In this document: piece after piece, positions 7,772 to 33,216 of the stretch
Layout: each line of letters begins with the position of its first letter
Position numbering within the stretch: position 1 is the stretch's first letter
DNA from: a virus
Lineage: Duplodnaviria; Caudoviricetes
Direction: 5' to 3' (one strand)
DNA length: 64,000 bases
IMG/VR virus record: IMGVR_UViG_2931369376_000001
Location: 1-64,000 of that record
The notes under the pieces: model-generated
The model's database searches: none
Told to the model about the DNA's origin: nothing
Seen by the model: the letters and a program-made list of their open reading frames with translations, nothing else
Translations under genes and position numbers: made by a program

Positions 7772-8019
7772 GCCGCAACCCCTCCCGCTTGCCTGTTTTT
7801 CCGCTGCGCTCCAAAACAGGCAAGCCCTCCCGCCACCGGTAAAGGTTTTGAGATGGATCGCCTTGCTACTCACTTTCGGAAGAATCGGCTGGATTCCTGC
7901 CCCCATTGCCCGCTGAGTAGACACTTCATAGGCCTGCTGCATTACCGAACCTTATCCTGCTGGACGGTTCCCGCGGCGTTTTTAACGTGGTGCCGGTCTA
8001 TTCCCCTTGCCCACATGGC

Positions 8020-8400
8020 AATGCCCCCAGGTTGCGAACCTGGGAAGGCGTGAAGCGCGTCGCACGGTCGGCCCTGTGCAATGTTTCCCCATTGGGCCGT
8101 ACAGTCGCAAAAGTGGGTAACAATCGCTTGATATCCAACCCCACAAATCGCATACGCTTACGTCCATTTCGGGCGCACGAAAACCACTCGGGCGCGCGAA
8201 AAAGCGCGACTGCTCGATGAGTGAGGGGGCTGAACTGTAGACAAGGGCGCTTGTTCGCGCCAGAATTGGCCTACAGAGTCGAGCTTCCCCGCCGCCACAG
8301 CAGAGATTCCCCTCGACTCCAGGCTATAGGGAGTTTGCACCTCCGCATTAGCCCTTCAAGACCCGCTCATAGCGGGTCTTGTCGTATCTGGCGCGCAGAA
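8020..8400 (-). ncRNA. candidate structured non-coding RNA
   Basis: No credible ORF; nested stems 8256-8264/8387-8395, 8276-8283/8312-8319, 8357-8367/8371-8381, 8026-8033/8037-8044, 8069-8074/8094-8099; stem extensions work as G-U pairs on the minus strand. Confidence 0.45.
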
Positions 8401-8474
8401 TAACCCCGAGAATTATCAATGCGCCATAGTGGCCATTTGTACAGCCTGTACAAACAGCCATGTCTATCCGTATT

Positions 8475-8485
8475 TATCCCCGGAC
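8475..8485 (-). promoter_or_regulatory. 11-bp operator copy
   Basis: TATCCCCGGAC upstream of the ncRNA candidate; palindrome TTTGTACA-GCC-TGTACAAA nearby. Confidence 0.7.
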
Positions 8486-8547
8486 AATCGGGGGGCCTGA
8501 AGCCCCCTAACTGCGCGCTTTCCCGACGAACGGTAGTACGATCCTTG

Positions 8548-9075
8548 TCAGCGCAATGGCGCCGTGGTGCGACCCCCCATGCTGTCGGTGTGGGGGTGCT
8601 GCTGCACGCTGATTCCGTCGCTGGTGATATCCCCGCCGGTCTGCGTTACCGGTCCTTGGACGGACAAGGCGGACGCTATTGCTGCAATGGAAGCCGGCGT
8701 GAGCACCAAACTGGTCCCGCCAACGATGAACTCAATCTTCGCGCCTGCGTTGATGGTAAACACCTGGTCGGTGTTGAACTCGAAGTTGTCGTGGTTCCAG
8801 CGCCTGGTCGATTGCTCGTTACCCGTGTTGACCGGGCGATTTCCCACGATGATCGGGTAGCGCCCGTCGCCATTACGGAACGCGAGCCACACAGGCATTC
8901 CCGGCAACATGCGGATCTCCGTATCGGTGGAGTCATCCCCCAGCGGGTTGCACAGCTCTGCCACTGGCCATTCACTTGCCCCATCGGTGTAGGGTGAAAA
9001 CGATACGCGGATTTCCCGACGCTGGCGGTTGTCCGTGACCTCTTCCACAAAGCCCGGCGTGTAGTTAGGTAGCAT
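8548..9075 (-). CDS. baseplate central spike (gpV-like)
   Basis: OB-fold-like N-terminus (GFVEEV, MPVWLAFRNGD..YPIIVG), beta-repeat body, C-terminal HxH (QHPHTD) tip motif. Confidence 0.8.
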   Translation of the reverse strand: MLPNYTPGFVEEVTDNRQRREIRVSFSPYTDGASEWPVAELCNPLGDDSTDTEIRMLPGMPVWLAFRNGDGRYPIIVGNRPVNTGNEQSTRRWNHDNFEFNTDQVFTINAGAKIEFIVGGTSLVLTPASIAAIASALSVQGPVTQTGGDITSDGISVQQHPHTDSMGGRTTAPLR

Positions 9076-25346: not shown

Positions 25347-26147
25347 CTAGCCCGCCATCAGGGTGGCGCCATCGGCACCTTTCAGTCGCTCACTCTCTTC
25401 GTCCAGGCATAGCAAGCACAGGGCCTCAAGCTCACGTTCTATCCGGTCGCCGGGCTTTGTCAGCGCGATGAGGCCCCGTCTATCCACATGAGGGGCCATA
25501 CGTGCCATTTGGCTCGCCAGCGTTTCAATGGGCGGGCACTTGATCGCCTTCATGATGGCGCCCTGCTTGTAGCGGTCGAACGTCAACGCGTAGCCGTCCA
25601 GGTACTGGGCGCGTAATGGTTCGCTTTCGGGGCGGCACTGAAGGTTAACGGAGTCCCAGGTAAAGCTGAGCGACGGCATGCGATTCAGCAAGCGCGGGAG
25701 GTCGCAGCACCACGAAAGCCCGTGAATCAAGACACGAGGTGACTCAAGCGCGGAGGCATAGACCGCCAGCTTTTGCACATAGGCTTCCTGCTTGTCGTAG
25801 TCCACGCTCCCGTTAACTGTTCGATCGCTCAGCAACACCGCCCGCCGGCGCCCGCCAGTGCTTCGAGCTGGGGCCACGATGAAGTGGAAGGCGTAGAACC
25901 GGTATCCGTCGCACAGCACGGTAATGAGGTGTTCGAACGCTTCCCCAGGCTTGATTGGACCGTCCGCCAGCGCGGCCTCTACCAATCCGGGCACGTCGCT
26001 TGGCTTCAGCGAAGGGCCCGCCGGGCGGTATTTCTTTCTGTAGCTGTCATATGGCGTGGCCGCTGGAACCTTGGAGTAAGGAACCTTGCTGAGTTGCCCC
26101 GTGCGCGCACGGAATGCCAGGTTATCGTCGTGCCGGCTGCGCTTCAT
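25347..26147 (-). CDS. hypothetical protein
   Basis: Start at MKRSRH, ATGA-coupled to the LytTR gene. Confidence 0.65.
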   Translation of the reverse strand: MKRSRHDDNLAFRARTGQLSKVPYSKVPAATPYDSYRKKYRPAGPSLKPSDVPGLVEAALADGPIKPGEAFEHLITVLCDGYRFYAFHFIVAPARSTGGRRRAVLLSDRTVNGSVDYDKQEAYVQKLAVYASALESPRVLIHGLSWCCDLPRLLNRMPSLSFTWDSVNLQCRPESEPLRAQYLDGYALTFDRYKQGAIMKAIKCPPIETLASQMARMAPHVDRRGLIALTKPGDRIERELEALCLLCLDEESERLKGADGATLMAG

Positions 26148-26667: not shown

Positions 26668-28218
26668 TTATGCGACGTCGGCGAACATGTCGGCGGCTTT
26701 ACTCAGGGTTGCTTCGGCGCGCGAGGTCTGCGCCACCTCTGTCTCTTCGTTGCACGCGACATAGTTCACGTCCTCGAGGAAGGCCATGCATAGCGTGTCA
26801 AAAAGGTCCGGGGACGACAGGCCGTCAGCGGCCATGCTCTCTTTGCTGGCGATCTTGTACCGGCCCAGCTCGTCGAAGGCGTAGGGCAGGCGTGAGCCCT
26901 GGTCTATGAGGTCGCGCTTATATTTGGTCGACAGCTTGACCACGCCGTCCTTGATCGCCTCGGTAGCGTGCACGGTGCACTGCGCCCGCTGGTTGATGAA
27001 GCGCTTACGGTTCTCGTTGGAGTGCGGGCGGGCGCCCCATTGGACACCCTGGATGATCATGCTGCCCTCTTGCAGCTCCTGAAGCCGGCGCAGGAACTGC
27101 ATGCCCATGGCACTGACGTCGATAACGATGGTGACGTTCGGGAAACGCATTGCGTAGTCACGCAGCTTGACCGCCAGCGGCGTCCAGTCCTCGGATGCGC
27201 TGTAGATTGGGATGTCGACAACCTCAACCCGTCGGCGCCGCTCGTTCGCCATGCGATCGCCCTTGCCGCTGACGCGCAGATGGGTGGCCACCGTCTTGTC
27301 TCGCCCAACGCCCGCGGCGACGTCGACAACGATGAGGTGCCCCCACTCTTCTCCCGGAAGGATTGGACTGGCCAGGCCCATGGCCCGCTCGATCATGACC
27401 GAACTCAACAGGTACTTGCTGAGGTTGGTCGGGAACATCCCCCGCACTTTGATCTGATATTCCGGCTCGTCGACGCCGCCGTACTGGAGCCGCTTCTCCT
27501 TGATGAACTTGATGCCCACAATCGGGCTTTCTTCGGAGTTGAACACCAGCGGCACCCACGAGCCGCCGCGGTGGATCGACTGGCCGTGGTGGGTTTCCCA
27601 GAAGAACCCGGTCGAGCGCGTGGGCTGGCTGGCCATGATGAAGCGGTTGCGCTCATCAGTCATCGCGCCGCCAATCACGCCAAAGTTTTCGTCAGGGATC
27701 CCCGACGCTTCGTCCGCCAGCCAAAGCAGGTAGTCGGCGTGGGTACCGGCCAGGTTCTCAGGCGAGCCGCGCGGTGCGGTGCGGGTGGTGACGTACCAGG
27801 TGGCGCTGTGCCCGGCCACGTAGACTTTCTCGGCCTGAATCACAACGTAGTCAGCGATCCAGGCATGCGGGCCTTTGCGAATCTCGGCCAGCATGGTGGT
27901 GATTTCTTTCCACACACCCTCTCGCACCGTCTTGAGTTTCGGCGCGGTCACGTAGGTGTTGGAGTTGAAGTAGCACAGCAGGTGCCAAAGGCAGATGACG
28001 CCGAAGCTCCGGGTTTTACCAGTACCGTGGCCAGACGATACCGATACCCGGCAGCCATAGGCTGAGGACTCATCAAAAAGCTCTTGCTGTTGCGGTGTGA
28101 CATCCATCAAACACGCTTCAACCGCAAAGCCGTACAGGTTGAAGGCGTAACGCTCAATGAATTCGGGCCACCTCGGGTCTGCCTCTAATCGCAGACTCTT
28201 GGGTTTCGGCTTGGCCAT
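26668..28218 (-). CDS. terL: terminase large subunit (P1 PacB-like)
   Basis: Walker A SGHGTGKT, Walker B LWLADEASG, nuclease acidic motifs VDVAAGVGRD and SPDLFD. Confidence 0.92.
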   Translation of the reverse strand: MAKPKPKSLRLEADPRWPEFIERYAFNLYGFAVEACLMDVTPQQQELFDESSAYGCRVSVSSGHGTGKTRSFGVICLWHLLCYFNSNTYVTAPKLKTVREGVWKEITTMLAEIRKGPHAWIADYVVIQAEKVYVAGHSATWYVTTRTAPRGSPENLAGTHADYLLWLADEASGIPDENFGVIGGAMTDERNRFIMASQPTRSTGFFWETHHGQSIHRGGSWVPLVFNSEESPIVGIKFIKEKRLQYGGVDEPEYQIKVRGMFPTNLSKYLLSSVMIERAMGLASPILPGEEWGHLIVVDVAAGVGRDKTVATHLRVSGKGDRMANERRRRVEVVDIPIYSASEDWTPLAVKLRDYAMRFPNVTIVIDVSAMGMQFLRRLQELQEGSMIIQGVQWGARPHSNENRKRFINQRAQCTVHATEAIKDGVVKLSTKYKRDLIDQGSRLPYAFDELGRYKIASKESMAADGLSSPDLFDTLCMAFLEDVNYVACNEETEVAQTSRAEATLSKAADMFADVA

Positions 28219-28260
28219 AGGATCCTTAAACACAAAGGGGCCAGTTCCCCGGCCCCTATC

Positions 28261-28301
28261 ACTCTACGGCTACGCCAATCGGACTTTGAGCGACGGTTTG
28301 C
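28261..28301 (-). promoter_or_regulatory. late promoter (terL)
   Basis: GCAAAC-N29-TAGAGT, inside the 3' end of the pseudo-ATPase gene. Confidence 0.6.
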
Positions 28302-28992
28302 ATTCGTGCGTGGCGTTCAGCACGAAAGAATCCCAGTGGCCACCCGACGCCCAGCAACTGCTGCCCGTTGTTTGGGTGTCGCGGAAAAAGCCTTTGCGGA
28401 GTCCGCGGCCCGCGTGCAGCACCATGCCGCCGTCACCGCAGCAGGCCAGCCCTTCCCGCGCCACCTGAAAGCTCACCGCGGCCATGGCGTTGGCGTCCTC
28501 CATCAGCCACATCACGTCGTGCCCACAGAAGCCAGCCATGCGTTCAGGGTAGTGCTCGCTCGCAGCCATAAAGAGAACACCACGCCCGGAATACTGCTCC
28601 TGCTGGTTTAGCCTGATGCTTCTGATGGTGATTCGCAGGTAGTCGAGCAGCCATGCGTGCGGGCCGACGATGTTCTTGGCCAGCTTGCCGTATTGCTCAC
28701 AGCAGCGAAGCATGTCGCCGAAGGGCACGGCGACCATCGTCAGGGAGTCGGGCCGGCACAGAAGGCGCCACAGCGCGATAGGCGCCAGCGGGCTGACTAC
28801 CCCCATTTCCATTGGGTTCCGGTCAGAGGCAATCGACACCCGGCAGCCAGGCAGCCCCACGCACTCGAATGCCCGCGCCAGCCCCTTGTCCACTTCTACC
28901 CCGCACACCTCCCGAGCGAAGTCGGCCAGGTTGTTGGCGTAGCGGCGGGCGAATGCAGGCCACCGCTCATCCTCTTGAATCAGGCGGTTCAT
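28270..28992 (-). CDS. inactive paralog of the TerL ATPase domain
   Basis: Colinear with TerL residues ~1-235; Walker A replaced by SDRNPMEM. Confidence 0.8.
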   Translation of the reverse strand: MNRLIQEDERWPAFARRYANNLADFAREVCGVEVDKGLARAFECVGLPGCRVSIASDRNPMEMGVVSPLAPIALWRLLCRPDSLTMVAVPFGDMLRCCEQYGKLAKNIVGPHAWLLDYLRITIRSIRLNQQEQYSGRGVLFMAASEHYPERMAGFCGHDVMWLMEDANAMAAVSFQVAREGLACCGDGGMVLHAGRGLRKGFFRDTQTTGSSCWASGGHWDSFVLNATHECKPSLKVRLA

Positions 28993-29588
28993 GATGCGGA
29001 CTCAGCGGACAGCTGCGCCGATTCCCGCTCGTGCTCAGCGATCAGCAAAGCCGCGGCCTTCTCGATCGCCCGCAGTCGTGTTTCTTGTTTCATTGGCGCG
29101 TGCGGCCACGGCCACACCGTGGTGGCGTAATCCGGCACCAGCACCTGGAGAATGTAGCCGGCGGCGGCGCGCAGCAATTCGTCATTGCTGTAGCGCAGGT
29201 CGCGCTGCGGGTGATACCCCTTCACAACCAGCTGGCGCTGGCGCTCGCTCAGGATGGCGTTCTCGCTTGGGCCCGTCACCGGCATGGCTGGCCACAGCGC
29301 CAGCGGCTGCTCCCAACCATTCGCAGCCCTTTGCGCCCACTCGCTCGGCTGCATGCGGGCGTATGGGCGGGTCACCGATATACCCTGATCCCGGCCCCGA
29401 CGGACCAGGAGCCAGGCTTTAGGCTGCTGGGTTGCATGTTTGGACTGCGCCAGCGATTCCCACACCTGGTACGTCTTTTGTGTGTGGGCGTTCACGTATT
29501 CGCCGGCGTCGGCGTTGTACGCCAGGTCACTGATGCCAGCATGCCGGCAGGACCGCTCAAAGTGTTCGCGACTGAAGAACAAGGTCAT
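28989..29588 (-). CDS. conserved phage protein
   Basis: ILSERQRQL..GY..D...ELLRAAAGY...WPW...KAAALLIAE.ER; start reassigned to MTLFF. Confidence 0.7.
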   Translation of the reverse strand: MTLFFSREHFERSCRHAGISDLAYNADAGEYVNAHTQKTYQVWESLAQSKHATQQPKAWLLVRRGRDQGISVTRPYARMQPSEWAQRAANGWEQPLALWPAMPVTGPSENAILSERQRQLVVKGYHPQRDLRYSNDELLRAAAGYILQVLVPDYATTVWPWPHAPMKQETRLRAIEKAAALLIAEHERESAQLSAESAS

Positions 29589-29824
29589 GACGGGCTCTCT
29601 GCCGAATTGGAAAACTGAATCGCCGTTGACGCTGGCATGGCCCCACAATCGTGGCCCCAGGCAGCCAGGCCGGTGTCCTGGAAGGCCCACCGGTCGCCCG
29701 GGAGCTGGTCGCGTTGTACGTGCTCGATCTCGCCCGCGGCATTGCACAACCACAGCTCGTCCCCAAGCTCCAGGTATACCGTCAGCGACTCGCCGGTCAG
29801 GCGATTGGTCACGATTTGGCTCAC
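29585..29824 (-). CDS. hypothetical protein
   Basis: 79 aa, coupled overlaps on both sides. Confidence 0.55.
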   Translation of the reverse strand: MSQIVTNRLTGESLTVYLELGDELWLCNAAGEIEHVQRDQLPGDRWAFQDTGLAAWGHDCGAMPASTAIQFSNSAESPS

Positions 29825-30312
29825 TTCATTTCCCCGGTCCTGCGATTGATCTCCGTTGGTTTCGTGAAAGCCCGGGAGAACCGGAACTCCTGGATTACCT
29901 GGTTGAAATTGGTTTCCACCCGGTCGAAGTACTGGTTACCGTCGGCCATCAGCGCTTGCGCCAGCATGGCCGCGCCTACGCTGCGCCCCTCCATCACGTA
30001 GGTGGCCAAGCACCGCACCAGGCGCTGTTCGGCATAGGTCCCGCTGAAGCCCGGCAGCAAGCGGCCTGTACCACGCACAGACGTCTCCAAATTAACTGGA
30101 CGCGCATCTGCCGTCGGCGGCATGAAATAGAAACCACCGAGTCGCTTGGGCTCCAACCGCGCCAGCTGTCCGTCCTTGCCAAAAATGTGCATTCCGCACG
30201 CGGCCAGGGACTTGAAGATCAAGTTGGCCGTCTCCAGCCGGTATTGCTGGCGTGCGCTCAGCTTCAATGCGGCAGGCGCCGCCGGTACCGCAGTTGCTGT
30301 TTGCATGTGCAT
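29821..30312 (-). CDS. hypothetical protein
   Basis: 163-aa ORF in the operon. Confidence 0.6.
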   Translation of the reverse strand: MHMQTATAVPAAPAALKLSARQQYRLETANLIFKSLAACGMHIFGKDGQLARLEPKRLGGFYFMPPTADARPVNLETSVRGTGRLLPGFSGTYAEQRLVRCLATYVMEGRSVGAAMLAQALMADGNQYFDRVETNFNQVIQEFRFSRAFTKPTEINRRTGEMK

Positions 30313-30315
30313 CCC

Positions 30316-30486
30316 TTAAATCTTGAGCCGCAGCTGGGCGCGGTCACATTCGTTTTCACCGTGTGGGAGCTTGTGGGCCTGGGCCTCACAGTTCCGGCGC
30401 CCGCAATCACGGCAGTAGGTGTAGGCGGGGGCGTTTCGTGGCCTCCGCCAGATGACGCGATCGCTTTCGCAAAAACGGCAGTCCAT
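30316..30486 (-). CDS. 56-aa zinc-ribbon peptide (below the ORF-track cutoff)
   Basis: MDCRFCES...YCRDCGR; AGGA RBS; operator 17 nt upstream. Confidence 0.55.
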   Translation of the reverse strand: MDCRFCESDRVIWRRPRNAPAYTYCRDCGRRNCEAQAHKLPHGENECDRAQLRLKI

Positions 30487-30502: not shown

Positions 30503-30513
30503 TATCCCCGGAC
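30503..30513 (-). promoter_or_regulatory. 11-bp operator copy
   Basis: TATCCCCGGAC. Confidence 0.7.
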
Positions 30514-31808
30514 TACACGGGGCGTTGGTCGATCATCGCTTGCGCGTACACCCATCGGCGATTAGCAAAGGCGGTTAGGCTTTCGCCCTCTGCCTGCACC
30601 AGCGGACACGTCACTGCGAAATCATCGCGCAGGTCTACCAGGTACGCGTCCAGGGGTTTGCTGGTTACCTTGGGTGCCTGGGCCGGGTCGGATTGCATTT
30701 GTGCGGATTTCTCCACGACGGTGGGCAACTTGACGCTATGGAAAGCCAGGCAGATAGCCTCAAACAAATCGGCGGAACTGTTTGCCCGCGGGCTCCCTTC
30801 AGGGGCGCCCACCCGATAGCGGGCCTCAGCCGTGAAATGGAATGGAAGCTTTGCCCCGAACAGCTCAAGCGCGGTTTCGTGGTTTCGGTAGGTGGGCCAG
30901 CAGTGTTTCAGCTTCAAGGCACCGTCTTTGATCGCCTCAGCAGCGCGAACACTGCATTCCGCGCGCCGGTTGAAGAACCGAGCGCCGCCAGCCTTCTTGG
31001 ACAAGGGATTACCCATGGTCATGCCGTACCGCTTCACCGTTGGGCTCGACATCGCTTCCAGGCAGCGCAGAAACTCCAGGCCATGACCGAGTACGTCTAC
31101 CAAGATCGTGGCATCTGGCAGCGCCGACGCACACTGGAACAGGTGTTTGGCCTGTTGCTCGATGTCTCCAGGGTCGCCATGAATTGGGTAATCCACCACT
31201 TCAACAAACCGCTGGCAGCGCCCTACCTGCGTCGGGCTGTCATAGACCCTCATGTGGGCGGCTACCGTGAGGCCTGGGCGGATACCGCCACCCACACGCA
31301 CACCGAAGACATCCTTGGCCACAACGCCATCAGGGATAGGGCTGTCGATGTCCAGCGCTCGCTCGATGTCGGTGCCAGCGACGAGGTACATGCCGGGATC
31401 GCGTGGAGCTGCCTGGAGAATTGCAGGCACGTCGCTGTTGGTGGCCTGGGCGGGGGGCTGTACTTTCCCACTGACAACGATTTGCAGCGGGCCGGGCTTC
31501 TGGACACGGACCACATCCTTGATGGCGCTGGCCATAGGCGACGTAAGGAAGCTGTTCAGCAGCTGCCGCAGGCGGTAATGGGTCTGTGCATAGCGCGCCT
31601 TGCGGCCAAAGCCTTCCTGCACCGATACAGGCTTGCACCCTGGGATCTCAACCCAGTAGTGCACGCCCCGATCAGCGTTCAGTCTATCGGGCTCCGTCAC
31701 TTTGACGCCCTGGGTGATGAGCCATTGCTTGAACACCGATACATTGCTGGCCAGCAGCAGGTCCGTGTCGTGCTTTTGTCCTTTCGCTTTTGCTGCGGTG
31801 TTCGACAT
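30513..31808 (-). CDS. mosaic protein carrying an inactive TerL nuclease-domain paralog
   Basis: aa ~140-356 colinear with the TerL C-terminal domain; catalytic Asp lost. Confidence 0.8.
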   Translation of the reverse strand: MSNTAAKAKGQKHDTDLLLASNVSVFKQWLITQGVKVTEPDRLNADRGVHYWVEIPGCKPVSVQEGFGRKARYAQTHYRLRQLLNSFLTSPMASAIKDVVRVQKPGPLQIVVSGKVQPPAQATNSDVPAILQAAPRDPGMYLVAGTDIERALDIDSPIPDGVVAKDVFGVRVGGGIRPGLTVAAHMRVYDSPTQVGRCQRFVEVVDYPIHGDPGDIEQQAKHLFQCASALPDATILVDVLGHGLEFLRCLEAMSSPTVKRYGMTMGNPLSKKAGGARFFNRRAECSVRAAEAIKDGALKLKHCWPTYRNHETALELFGAKLPFHFTAEARYRVGAPEGSPRANSSADLFEAICLAFHSVKLPTVVEKSAQMQSDPAQAPKVTSKPLDAYLVDLRDDFAVTCPLVQAEGESLTAFANRRWVYAQAMIDQRPV

Positions 31809-32098
31809 CAGTCAGCTCCTAACGGGTTGGCCGTGAATGGCCTCAGGTTCTCGGGGCGCCCGCGGCGAATGGCCTTGGGACGCTTTTCAACGACAGGCTT
31901 GAGCCACAGCTGTCCGGTTTTGAACAGGAACAGCTCCCACAGCCCAAGCTTGATTTTGGTAGCGCCCTTCTCGTACAGCCGCCAGGACTCGCGACTCACG
32001 TAGATCAGCTCACCCGCGGCGGTTTCGCTCAGGTTCACGTTCTTGCGGGCCTTCCGGATGTTTTGCGGGGTCGGCTGGCGATCGGCGGCGAGCGTCAT
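31808..32098 (-). CDS. XRE/KorC-like HTH protein
   Basis: PTPQNIRKARKNVNLSETAAGELIYVSRESWRLYEKG...LWELF. Confidence 0.75.
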   Translation of the reverse strand: MTLAADRQPTPQNIRKARKNVNLSETAAGELIYVSRESWRLYEKGATKIKLGLWELFLFKTGQLWLKPVVEKRPKAIRRGRPENLRPFTANPLGAD

Positions 32099-33216
32099 GC
32101 GTCACCGCCGCTGTCCAGGGCATCGATCTCGGCCCGGCGCTTGGCCATGGCTTCACGCTGGGCGGTGGTTTTTTCCTGGCCGCTGGCATAAATGGCGTCC
32201 AGTACGTCTTTACTCACGGTGGCCACGACTGGCTGCGCCGGCTCGATGTTCATATTGAAAATCCGCCCCAGCATTTCCAGGTATGGGCGTTGATCGGCGA
32301 TCCTCATTTTGAGCCCGTCCTTGGTTTCCTCCACGCCGCCGTACAGCGCCAGCGCGCCCGGGGAAAGGTGACGGGTATCCTTGAGCACCAGGTGCCCTAC
32401 ACCGTTGCCGTTGCACTCCGGGCAATCCGGGTGCGGGTCAAGGTTGGCATCAAAGCCCAGGCCGCCCAGCTCGTCGAACTCCGGGGCCTTGCGCTTTTCG
32501 CGCTTCGCTTCTGCTACGGCCTGGTCGTGGCGAGCCTTGCGCTCAGTCATCTGGTTCGGCGTCATCTGGTACCGAAAGTCCTTCCCATGGCACCACCGGC
32601 AGCACTTATAGACGTATTCCACCAGCTCACGAGGGTCGGCCAGAGCGGCGCCGTAGACACGTTCAATCACGCGACCGGTGATTTCCTCTGTCTTGGCAAA
32701 CAGCTCCGCGCGCTTGGCCAGCGTGTATGGGTGCTCCTTAACCTTCCTTAACAGGCGACTGGCCGCGGCAGCCGCCACAGCGTCCGATTTGCACTCGAAC
32801 CCCGCATCCAGATAGGACTGTGTGCCGTTTTGCGTGACCAGCCAAAGGTCGACGAACTTGGCCTGGCGCGCATCGAGATCGTGAAGACTCCCGGCCTGCA
32901 AGGCTTCCAGCTCTTTCGGCTTCAGCTTTACGGCTTTCTTGACGCGGGTGCTCCCTCCGGTTTTACGCGTCGGTTTTGCTGGCGCTGGGGTGGTGCTTGC
33001 AGTGGACGCCGGCTTTGCCGCGGGAGGTTTTGGTGCCTTTGTGGCTGGCTTTTTCGTAGCCTTTGGCGGTGCCGTTTTTACAACGCGACCGCTCTTCACC
33101 TTAACCACTGGCGGTTTAGGGGGAGTAAATACACGTCCAGGAGCCTTGTCCGGGGATTGTTTATCCTCGGCTGGCTTGGTCTGCGCTTCGGTACTCTCGA
33201 TCTTCTTCCGTGCCAC
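32095..33216 (-). CDS. terS: terminase small subunit with Zn finger
   Basis: RQAKFV...NGTQSYLDAGF...ASRLL; CRWC...CPECNG. Confidence 0.8.
   Translation of the reverse strand: MARKKIESTEAQTKPAEDKQSPDKAPGRVFTPPKPPVVKVKSGRVVKTAPPKATKKPATKAPKPPAAKPASTASTTPAPAKPTRKTGGSTRVKKAVKLKPKELEALQAGSLHDLDARQAKFVDLWLVTQNGTQSYLDAGFECKSDAVAAAAASRLLRKVKEHPYTLAKRAELFAKTEEITGRVIERVYGAALADPRELVEYVYKCCRWCHGKDFRYQMTPNQMTERKARHDQAVAEAKREKRKAPEFDELGGLGFDANLDPHPDCPECNGNGVGHLVLKDTRHLSPGALALYGGVEETKDGLKMRIADQRPYLEMLGRIFNMNIEPAQPVVATVSKDVLDAIYASGQEKTTAQREAMAKRRAEIDALDSGGDA

Follow-up and report, generated by a model that had tools for sequence, protein, structure and literature searches.

A TerL nuclease paralog in the terS-terL interval

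The DNA analysed here, referred to as the window, is a stretch of 64,000 nucleotides that corresponds to positions 1-64,000 of CP048608.1, a circular record of 80,993 bp named "plasmid unnamed" of Pseudomonas fluorescens DR133; the element is a phage-plasmid. Between its genes for the small (terS) and large (terL) terminase subunits lies an open reading frame (ORF) of 431 amino acids (aa), here called T431, whose central part is related to the nuclease domain of TerL, and a separate 240-aa gene related to the TerL ATPase domain is found 1.5 kb away within the same interval. All genes of interest are on the (-) strand, and those annotated in CP048608.1, T431, terS and terL included, are labelled 'hypothetical protein'. 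The original prediction, made by a model from the letters of the window and its ORFs, had described a dead terminase nuclease domain grafted into a second protein, completing together with the ATPase-like gene a split pseudo-terminase. For comparison we used 13 related loci taken from 80-kb Pseudomonas contigs and IMG/VR (L004-L016), which together with the window (W) make up a clade of 14, as well as further loci (L017-L019, L022-L024, L026-L030, L032 and L033). The positions of all features are collected in Table 1.

T431 aa 135-389 align with aa 268-517 of the resident TerL at 33% identity (BLASTP, E 3e-32), and the peptide pairs listed by the original prediction are present in this alignment. 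The fold agrees: an AlphaFold2 (AF2) model built with 25 homologs shows a pLDDT of ~90 over aa 140-360, and its aa 137-366 superpose on Sf6 gp2 with a Z-score of 18.9 and a root-mean-square deviation of 3.1 Å over 207 residues (VIA), closely followed by the TerL of Pseudomonas phage E217 (VIA Z 18.8; Foldseek E 5.7e-8). In total 36 terminase entries match at Z>10, whereas no match to RuvC or another RNase H-like fold exceeds Z 7.8. The matches to solved TerL nucleases, i.e. Sf6 gp2 (4IEI, 5C12), E217 (8DKR), G20c and T4/RB49 gp17, cover the whole domain (Z 18.9-13.7, 164-208 residues) at 11-17% sequence identity. The T431 domain is hence genuinely paralogous to the nuclease domain of the resident PacB-type TerL. 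It is like the nuclease domains of the PacB-type TerLs (the resident enzyme, P1 PacB and those of Salmonella phage SJ46 and Acinetobacter phage ABMM1) in sequence and in its RNase H-like terminase fold, and differs from them in that T431 contains no ATPase-like segment and no TerL C-terminal tail, in that the first two Asp are replaced, and in that the domain is embedded between two unrelated ones and evolves several times faster.

Concerning the catalytic residues, the relevant columns were read from an alignment of 75 nuclease-type domains, comprising fused paralogs (32 rows), TerLs (32 rows) and the stand-alone copies described below. Full-length TerLs display Asp at five conserved positions in every row. 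The first of these is an Arg in all 32 fused orthologs (Arg171 in the window, invariant also in the 25-ortholog alignment), and the next Asp is replaced by Gly in 31 of them (Gly179 in the window) and by Ser in the remaining one; both replacements had been predicted, and inspection of the codons confirmed them. Asp238, at the second acidic position, is invariant in the fused copies, and Asp347, at the third, is kept in 90% or more of the sequences. The RFxNxRA...AIK helix and a beta-hairpin are common to the T431 domain and TerL, with the Lys-bearing helix conserved. The solved TerL nucleases named above are active, metal-dependent enzymes, whereas the T431 domain is devoid of the beta-1 Asp, and an Arg at the metal site is typical of pseudo-enzymes. 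Judged from these residues, the domain is almost certainly non-cutting.

No family matching T431 was found in Pfam, NCBIfam, PHROGs or PADLOC, and INPHARED phages yielded no DNA or protein match to it. Within PLSDB the full protein occurs only in CP048608.1, the window's own record, and sequence searches of the PDB with the T431 profile and with TerL returned nothing meaningful.

Table 1. Features of the terminase locus, listed from terS downstream (coordinates of the window)
Feature	Position	Strand	Basis
terS, small terminase	32095-33216	(-)	Pfam Terminase_2 E 1.4e-11; phrog_51
96-aa helix-turn-helix (HTH) gene	31808-32098	(-)	weak MqsA/HTH_31 matches; stop overlaps T431 start (TGATG)
T431, 431 aa: N domain, linker, dead TerL-nuclease-like domain, linker, C-terminal helical hairpin	30513-31808	(-)	ORF list, homologs, alignment, AF2
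N-terminal alpha/beta domain of T431, aa 1-100	31509-31808	(-)	invariant columns; pLDDT 80-92
TerL nuclease-like (RNase H-fold) pseudo-domain of T431, aa 135-360	30729-31406	(-)	BLASTP, fold match, catalytic columns, pN/pS
Arg171 codon; the Arg stands where strand beta-1 ends, in place of the first catalytic Asp	31296-31298	(-)	translation check
C-terminal helical hairpin of T431, aa 384-431 (LRDDFA...RRWxYAQAM), and stop codon	30513-30659	(-)	near-invariant block
56-aa CxxC...CxxC zinc-ribbon ORF	30316-30486	(-)	sequence; absent from GenBank annotation
Three translationally coupled small genes (163, 79 and 199 aa)	28989-30312	(-)	translations; synteny in 12/13 relatives
240-aa dead TerL ATPase-domain paralog, directly upstream of terL	28270-28992	(-)	BLASTP E 3e-23; phrog_5902
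GC-rich hairpin and T-rich tract	28226-28257	(-)	terminator-like site; present in 14/14 loci
Working terL, PacB type	26668-28218	(-)	phrog_2; motifs; start-codon context
112-aa gene, between terL and the 266-aa gene		(-)	
266-aa degenerate TerL-nuclease-like protein, two genes downstream of terL	25347-26147	(-)	BLASTP, hhalign

Insertion architecture, selection and allele exchange

The nuclease domain is an insertion into the linker of a conserved two-domain protein. Both the N domain and the C hairpin are better conserved than the insert, the N domain, with many invariant polar residues, being the best-conserved part of all, and the linkers that join the nuclease copy to either of them are modelled with low confidence. 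The proposed graft finds support in relatives where the host protein exists on its own. In L013 (IMGVR_UViG_3300031088_000796, 7986-8576) the T431 ortholog is a protein of 196 aa from which the whole nuclease-like insert is absent, with an N domain 73% and a C hairpin 68% identical to those of T431 and nothing between them. The corresponding proteins of L018 and L017 (235 and 275 aa; TerL 75% and 67% identical, respectively) have no insert either, and their C hairpin is 54-63% identical. Since L013 sits within the insert-carrying clade on the TerL tree, its insert was most likely lost secondarily, and the L017 and L018 proteins suggest that the insert-less form is the ancestral one. The L013 locus has also neither the 163-aa nor the 79-aa gene, and keeps the 199-aa gene and the ATPase-like gene.

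The best fold match of the N domain (Z 5.8, VIA wide) is the N-terminal duplex-binding domain of RNase H3, tied with KA1, RnlA/LsoA and METTL16 domains. When the N and C domains were modelled from the insert-less L013 protein, Foldseek returned nothing at E<0.7, and an ESM Atlas search gave nothing above 0.78. A GIY-YIG-like reading of the N-domain motif was not borne out.

The T431 homologs fall into 24 clusters at 39-93% identity, every one of them full length, and the fused frame is intact in 13 of the 14 loci of the clade. For the nuclease-like domain, four pairs whose divergence is low to moderate give a ratio of non-synonymous to synonymous differences (pN/pS) of 0.10-0.32 (binomial p 3e-3 to 5e-17), and that of the 240-aa ATPase-like protein is 0.12-0.44; the non-synonymous deficit is significant in each pair tested. 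Compared with the 0.02-0.1 obtained for TerL as the corresponding ratio of substitution rates (dN/dS), these values indicate that the constraint on the copies is real but weaker. Nuclease copy and ATPase-like protein are therefore under selection and not decaying; neutral decay, raised beforehand as an outcome that would speak against the prediction, is seen in neither of them (pN/pS 0.1-0.44, p<=3e-3).

Among phages whose TerLs are 82-99% identical, the nuclease copies share 29-91% and the ATPase-like proteins 23-96% identity. Pairwise comparison of whole loci shows where the differences are located. Between L007 and L011 the flanking DNA is 94-99% identical and drops to 56-74% exactly over T431; their nuclease copies are 50% identical and their ATPase-like proteins 96%. 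Between the window and L014, the 3' half of the ATPase-like gene stands out at 64-76% within DNA that is 91-99% identical, and the nuclease copies are 91% and the ATPase-like proteins 67% identical. The confinement of such drops to single accessory genes, in phage-plasmids that are otherwise 91-99% identical, points to cassette-like allele replacement. The 79-aa gene is likewise a site of local identity drop between the window and L014.

Other terminase-derived copies and the resident terminase

The 240-aa protein is 31% identical to TerL aa 16-243 (BLASTP, E 3e-23), which together with its position bears out the dead ATPase paralog that had been predicted between terS and terL. Walker A (P-loop) is absent in 17 of 17 relatives, and the Walker B DE is ED in the window and ED, HD, PD or EG across relatives. 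What stays invariant is the N-terminal RY....FA..V motif of the TerL family and three short motifs. Beyond phrog_5902 no family was matched by this pseudo-ATPase in Pfam, NCBIfam, PHROGs or PADLOC.

The original prediction took the dead nuclease and the dead ATPase for a two-component system, and their distribution agrees with this in part. Both occur in 13 of the 14 clade loci and also in L023 and L027; the pseudo-ATPase is found without a dead nuclease in L013, and a dead nuclease without the pseudo-ATPase in L017, L018 and L022. In L024 and L026 a pseudo-ATPase was seen and no dead nuclease within the stretch examined, and L029, L030, L032 and L033 have neither within 9 kb of terL. An obligate unit is disfavoured by the independent exchange of alleles described above and by the lack of co-variation between the two pseudo-domains once TerL distance is controlled (partial Mantel r -0.25), so that the two are probably not one unit. 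With the same control the pseudo-ATPase co-varies with TerS (partial Mantel r 0.72 for 11 loci and 0.71 for 16 loci, p<=6e-4), from which it is ~3 kb and seven genes away, more strongly than with the adjacent gene (r 0.26-0.44). This is a lead, not proof, that the pseudo-ATPase may work with TerS; part of the signal could come from a history of recombination that the genes of the operon have in common.

It should be noted that functional split terminases, with ATPase and nuclease on separate polypeptides, are annotated in some actinobacteriophages. As there, TerL domains are found here as separate genes; the difference is that an intact TerL is also present here and that both copies are without catalytic motifs. 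The locus does not fit a functional two-gene terminase, given the absence of Walker A, the loss of the first Asp and the intact TerL next door.

A third copy lies downstream of terL. The similarity of the 266-aa protein to the TerL nuclease domain is weak in pairwise comparison (BLASTP, E 8e-4) and clearer between profiles, where hhalign aligns the two with a probability of 94.7% (E 5.9e-8) over 188 columns that span the whole domain. Every catalytic Asp position is lost in it, and it is present at 33-90% identity in 12 of the 12 clade relatives whose sequence extends that far. Neither this protein nor most of the small genes neighbouring T431 match a family in Pfam, NCBIfam, PHROGs or PADLOC. 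As read from these alignments, the genome of the window has three TerL-derived, apparently dead domains around one working terL, and the picture of two halves put forward in the original prediction is therefore incomplete.

When 1.84 billion representatives were scanned exhaustively with the T431 domain (HMMER), only 38 hits were returned, which belong to three groups: the fused orthologs, the TerLs of this family (several with inteins) and stand-alone proteins. The latter (P0044, P0046, P0048-50, P0053, P0055, P0056, P0061 and P0064; loci L017, L018, L022 and L023) are of 211-304 aa and start exactly at the domain boundary, their first Asp being replaced by Val (once Met) and the next Asp being variable. 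In L017, L022 and L023 they are encoded immediately downstream of terL, in L018 five genes downstream and in L019 elsewhere. They share with T431 the TerL lineage, the loss of the first Asp, the proximity to terL and the lack of a published description that we could find, and differ from it in being separate genes, mostly downstream of terL, in carrying Val or Met instead of Arg and in forming separate clades. The copy in L019 has no neighbour with an assigned function. P0059 (424 aa) has a Val-type dead TerL-nuclease domain (aa 87-305) between unrelated N- and C-terminal segments, unlike those of T431.

The fused copies form a monophyletic group in the tree (SH-aLRT 99), which together with two clades of solo copies adjoins the resident TerL clade, inside the more distant PacB-like TerLs. 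This placement argues that the copies arose within the phage lineage and not from a foreign terminase; given the long branches, the dead nuclease copies may have had one or several origins within the phage-plasmid lineage. The gene arrangements point to partial tandem duplication: L017 and L022 have [TerL][solo], and L023 has [pseudo-ATPase][TerL][solo], which matches the outcome of such duplications at both ends of terL. In the literature searched we found no description of dead or paralogous TerLs or of terminase decoys, in line with the earlier impression that the arrangement was undescribed. The present analysis adds the architecture of the fusion, the variant with Arg, the third copy and the finding that the two pseudo-domains are not coupled.

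The resident TerL itself is 34% identical to that of P1, 36% to that of SJ46 and 42% to that of ABMM1 over ~95% of its length, with an intact Walker A (GTGKT) and every nuclease Asp kept. It matches phrog_2 and phrog_5902 only, without a Pfam or NCBIfam match, and a census found its family in just 2-3 of 401 Pseudomonas species genomes. The ATG at 28218 is its most probable start and is preferred to the GTG at 28233. An intein (Hom_end_hint, LAGLIDADG_3) is found close to the Walker A region, within the ATPase domain, in TerL orthologs of 639-869 aa, namely L016:10437-13019, the one of L028 and proteins P0043, P0060, P0062, P0063, P0069 and P0071. For terS, GenBank places the start at 32901; the Pfam match spans residues 115-322 of the 373-aa form, and this match and the relatives favour the longer gene of Table 1.

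The gene order from terS to terL is identical in 12 of the 13 related loci. Several stop and start codons overlap along the operon, and no promoter-like site was seen inside the terS-terL interval, nor were satellite-related genes seen in the locus. The GC-rich hairpin, found at the equivalent place in L004-L016, follows the stop codon of the pseudo-ATPase and precedes the ribosome-binding site of terL, and a TAGAGTGA box comes before the hairpin. Stem changes among the 14 loci preserve pairing, and the element could be an attenuator or terminator separating terL from the upstream accessory genes. Regarding the small neighbours, the 56-aa zinc ribbon has counterparts at 57% identity in L017 and L018, and in L004 gene calling gives a 56-aa gene at the equivalent place. 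The C-terminal ~80 residues of the 199-aa protein (28989-29588, (-) strand) match the extreme C-termini of eight function-unassigned PHROG families of 186-685 aa; because these families differ greatly in length, the match suggests a mobile C-terminal domain.

Proposed role and alternative explanations

The reading we favour, to which we give a probability of roughly 45%, is that T431 is a non-catalytic binding module linked to packaging, both the binding and the link to packaging being parts that we infer. A partial duplication of terL within the phage-plasmid lineage would have produced a copy of the nuclease domain, and in related phages dead copies persist as separate genes just downstream of terL. 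The copy would have lost the two Asp on and after strand beta-1 and would then have been fused, in one sub-lineage, into a neighbouring protein, the insertion point being the flexible linker of a conserved packaging-operon protein. In its present form the domain would bind and not cut. The positive Arg in the former metal site, together with the kept helix and hairpin, suggests DNA as ligand, and the place in the terS-terL operon suggests action at the packaging complex; the likeliest ligand would be DNA or a TerL partner at that complex, with the N and C domains acting as a tether. The insert would then be an accessory, fast-evolving and exchangeable element, not a core subunit, and independent of the dead ATPase paralog.

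Several observations weigh against this proposal. The absence of the insert in L013 makes it dispensable in at least one lineage, and its fast divergence and exchange as a cassette fit a role in conflict better than that of a partner of the conserved TerL. The fold of the N domain points to no clear function, all of its matches lying below Z 6. Moreover, two of the three classical acidic positions are kept, which leaves a small chance of residual metal binding.

The same fast evolution, a copy number that varies from 0 to 3 per locus and the cassette swaps between near-identical genomes resemble those of accessory conflict genes, and could mean, although we consider it unlikely, that the dead TerL-fold copies, namely the fused nuclease, the pseudo-ATPase and the 266-aa protein, are immune decoys or shields, made together with TerL, that occupy or mislead terminase-fold sensors (Avs1-3, Upx) without triggering them. 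Put in general terms, and just as unlikely in our view, PacB-type phage-plasmids would keep a variable, quickly exchanged set of dead look-alikes of both TerL domains, with as many as three in a genome, as decoys or shields co-expressed with terL. The copies do mimic both TerL domains and yet would be enzymatically harmless; the fused copy and the pseudo-ATPase are upstream of terL in the operon, and the conserved hairpin could raise their expression above that of terL. Avs1-3 and Upx sense terminase (PMC13601566; PMC13581612). SeAvs3 and EcAvs2, however, reportedly read active-site residues and bound ATP (PMC13601566), exactly the features that are missing from the copies. Furthermore, binding normally activates a STAND sensor, no defence-related profile match was obtained, no published precedent was found in the literature searched, and decoys would leave unexplained the fusion of the nuclease copy into a conserved packaging-operon protein. 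It is improbable that dead nuclease and dead ATPase are obligate halves of one split pseudo-terminase, as originally proposed: the two jointly account for the complete TerL fold, are both located between terS and terL, and are found together in most clade loci and in L023 and L027, but each also occurs singly (L013, L017, L018, L022), their allele identities are decoupled in the L007/L011 and W/L014 pairs and by the partial Mantel test, the pseudo-ATPase co-varies with TerS instead, and a third pseudo-domain exists.

Somewhat less probable still is that the copies act as dominant-negative subunits which poison the terminase of co-resident phages or satellites and spare the resident TerL. Pseudo-subunits of ring ATPases can poison rings, and fast-evolving, mosaic copies would suit such a role; there is, however, no sign of a target, no satellite-related genes were seen in the locus, and since their closest relative is the resident TerL, the copies would need some way to avoid self-poisoning. 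That the domain is still a nuclease, using other residues or an Asp supplied by a partner, appears very improbable. The invariant Asp238, the nearly invariant Asp347 and the conserved Lys-bearing helix would be in its favour, but the beta-1 Asp is a metal ligand in every TerL compared and has given way to Arg in all fused copies and to Val or Met in every solo one, the next Asp being lost too. Finally, a duplication remnant drifting to loss, open by chance in GC-rich DNA, is hardly credible: the copy diverges much faster than TerL and was lost in L013, but the non-synonymous deficit in every pair tested contradicts drift, as do frames that stay intact over 39-93% identity, the invariant residues and the confident fold.

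TerL is, to our knowledge, the most conserved enzyme of tailed phages, and it is one of the main targets of bacterial pattern-recognition immunity. Dead TerL paralogs that recur as fused, stand-alone, upstream and downstream forms in one phage-plasmid lineage provide a natural test series, and the fused form is an example of a whole domain inserted into the disordered linker of another protein. A non-catalytic terminase domain may regulate packaging, hold DNA uncut, or mask terminase from immune sensors. If the copies were indeed decoys, they would represent a new class of counter-defence, made by duplicating the sensed protein itself.

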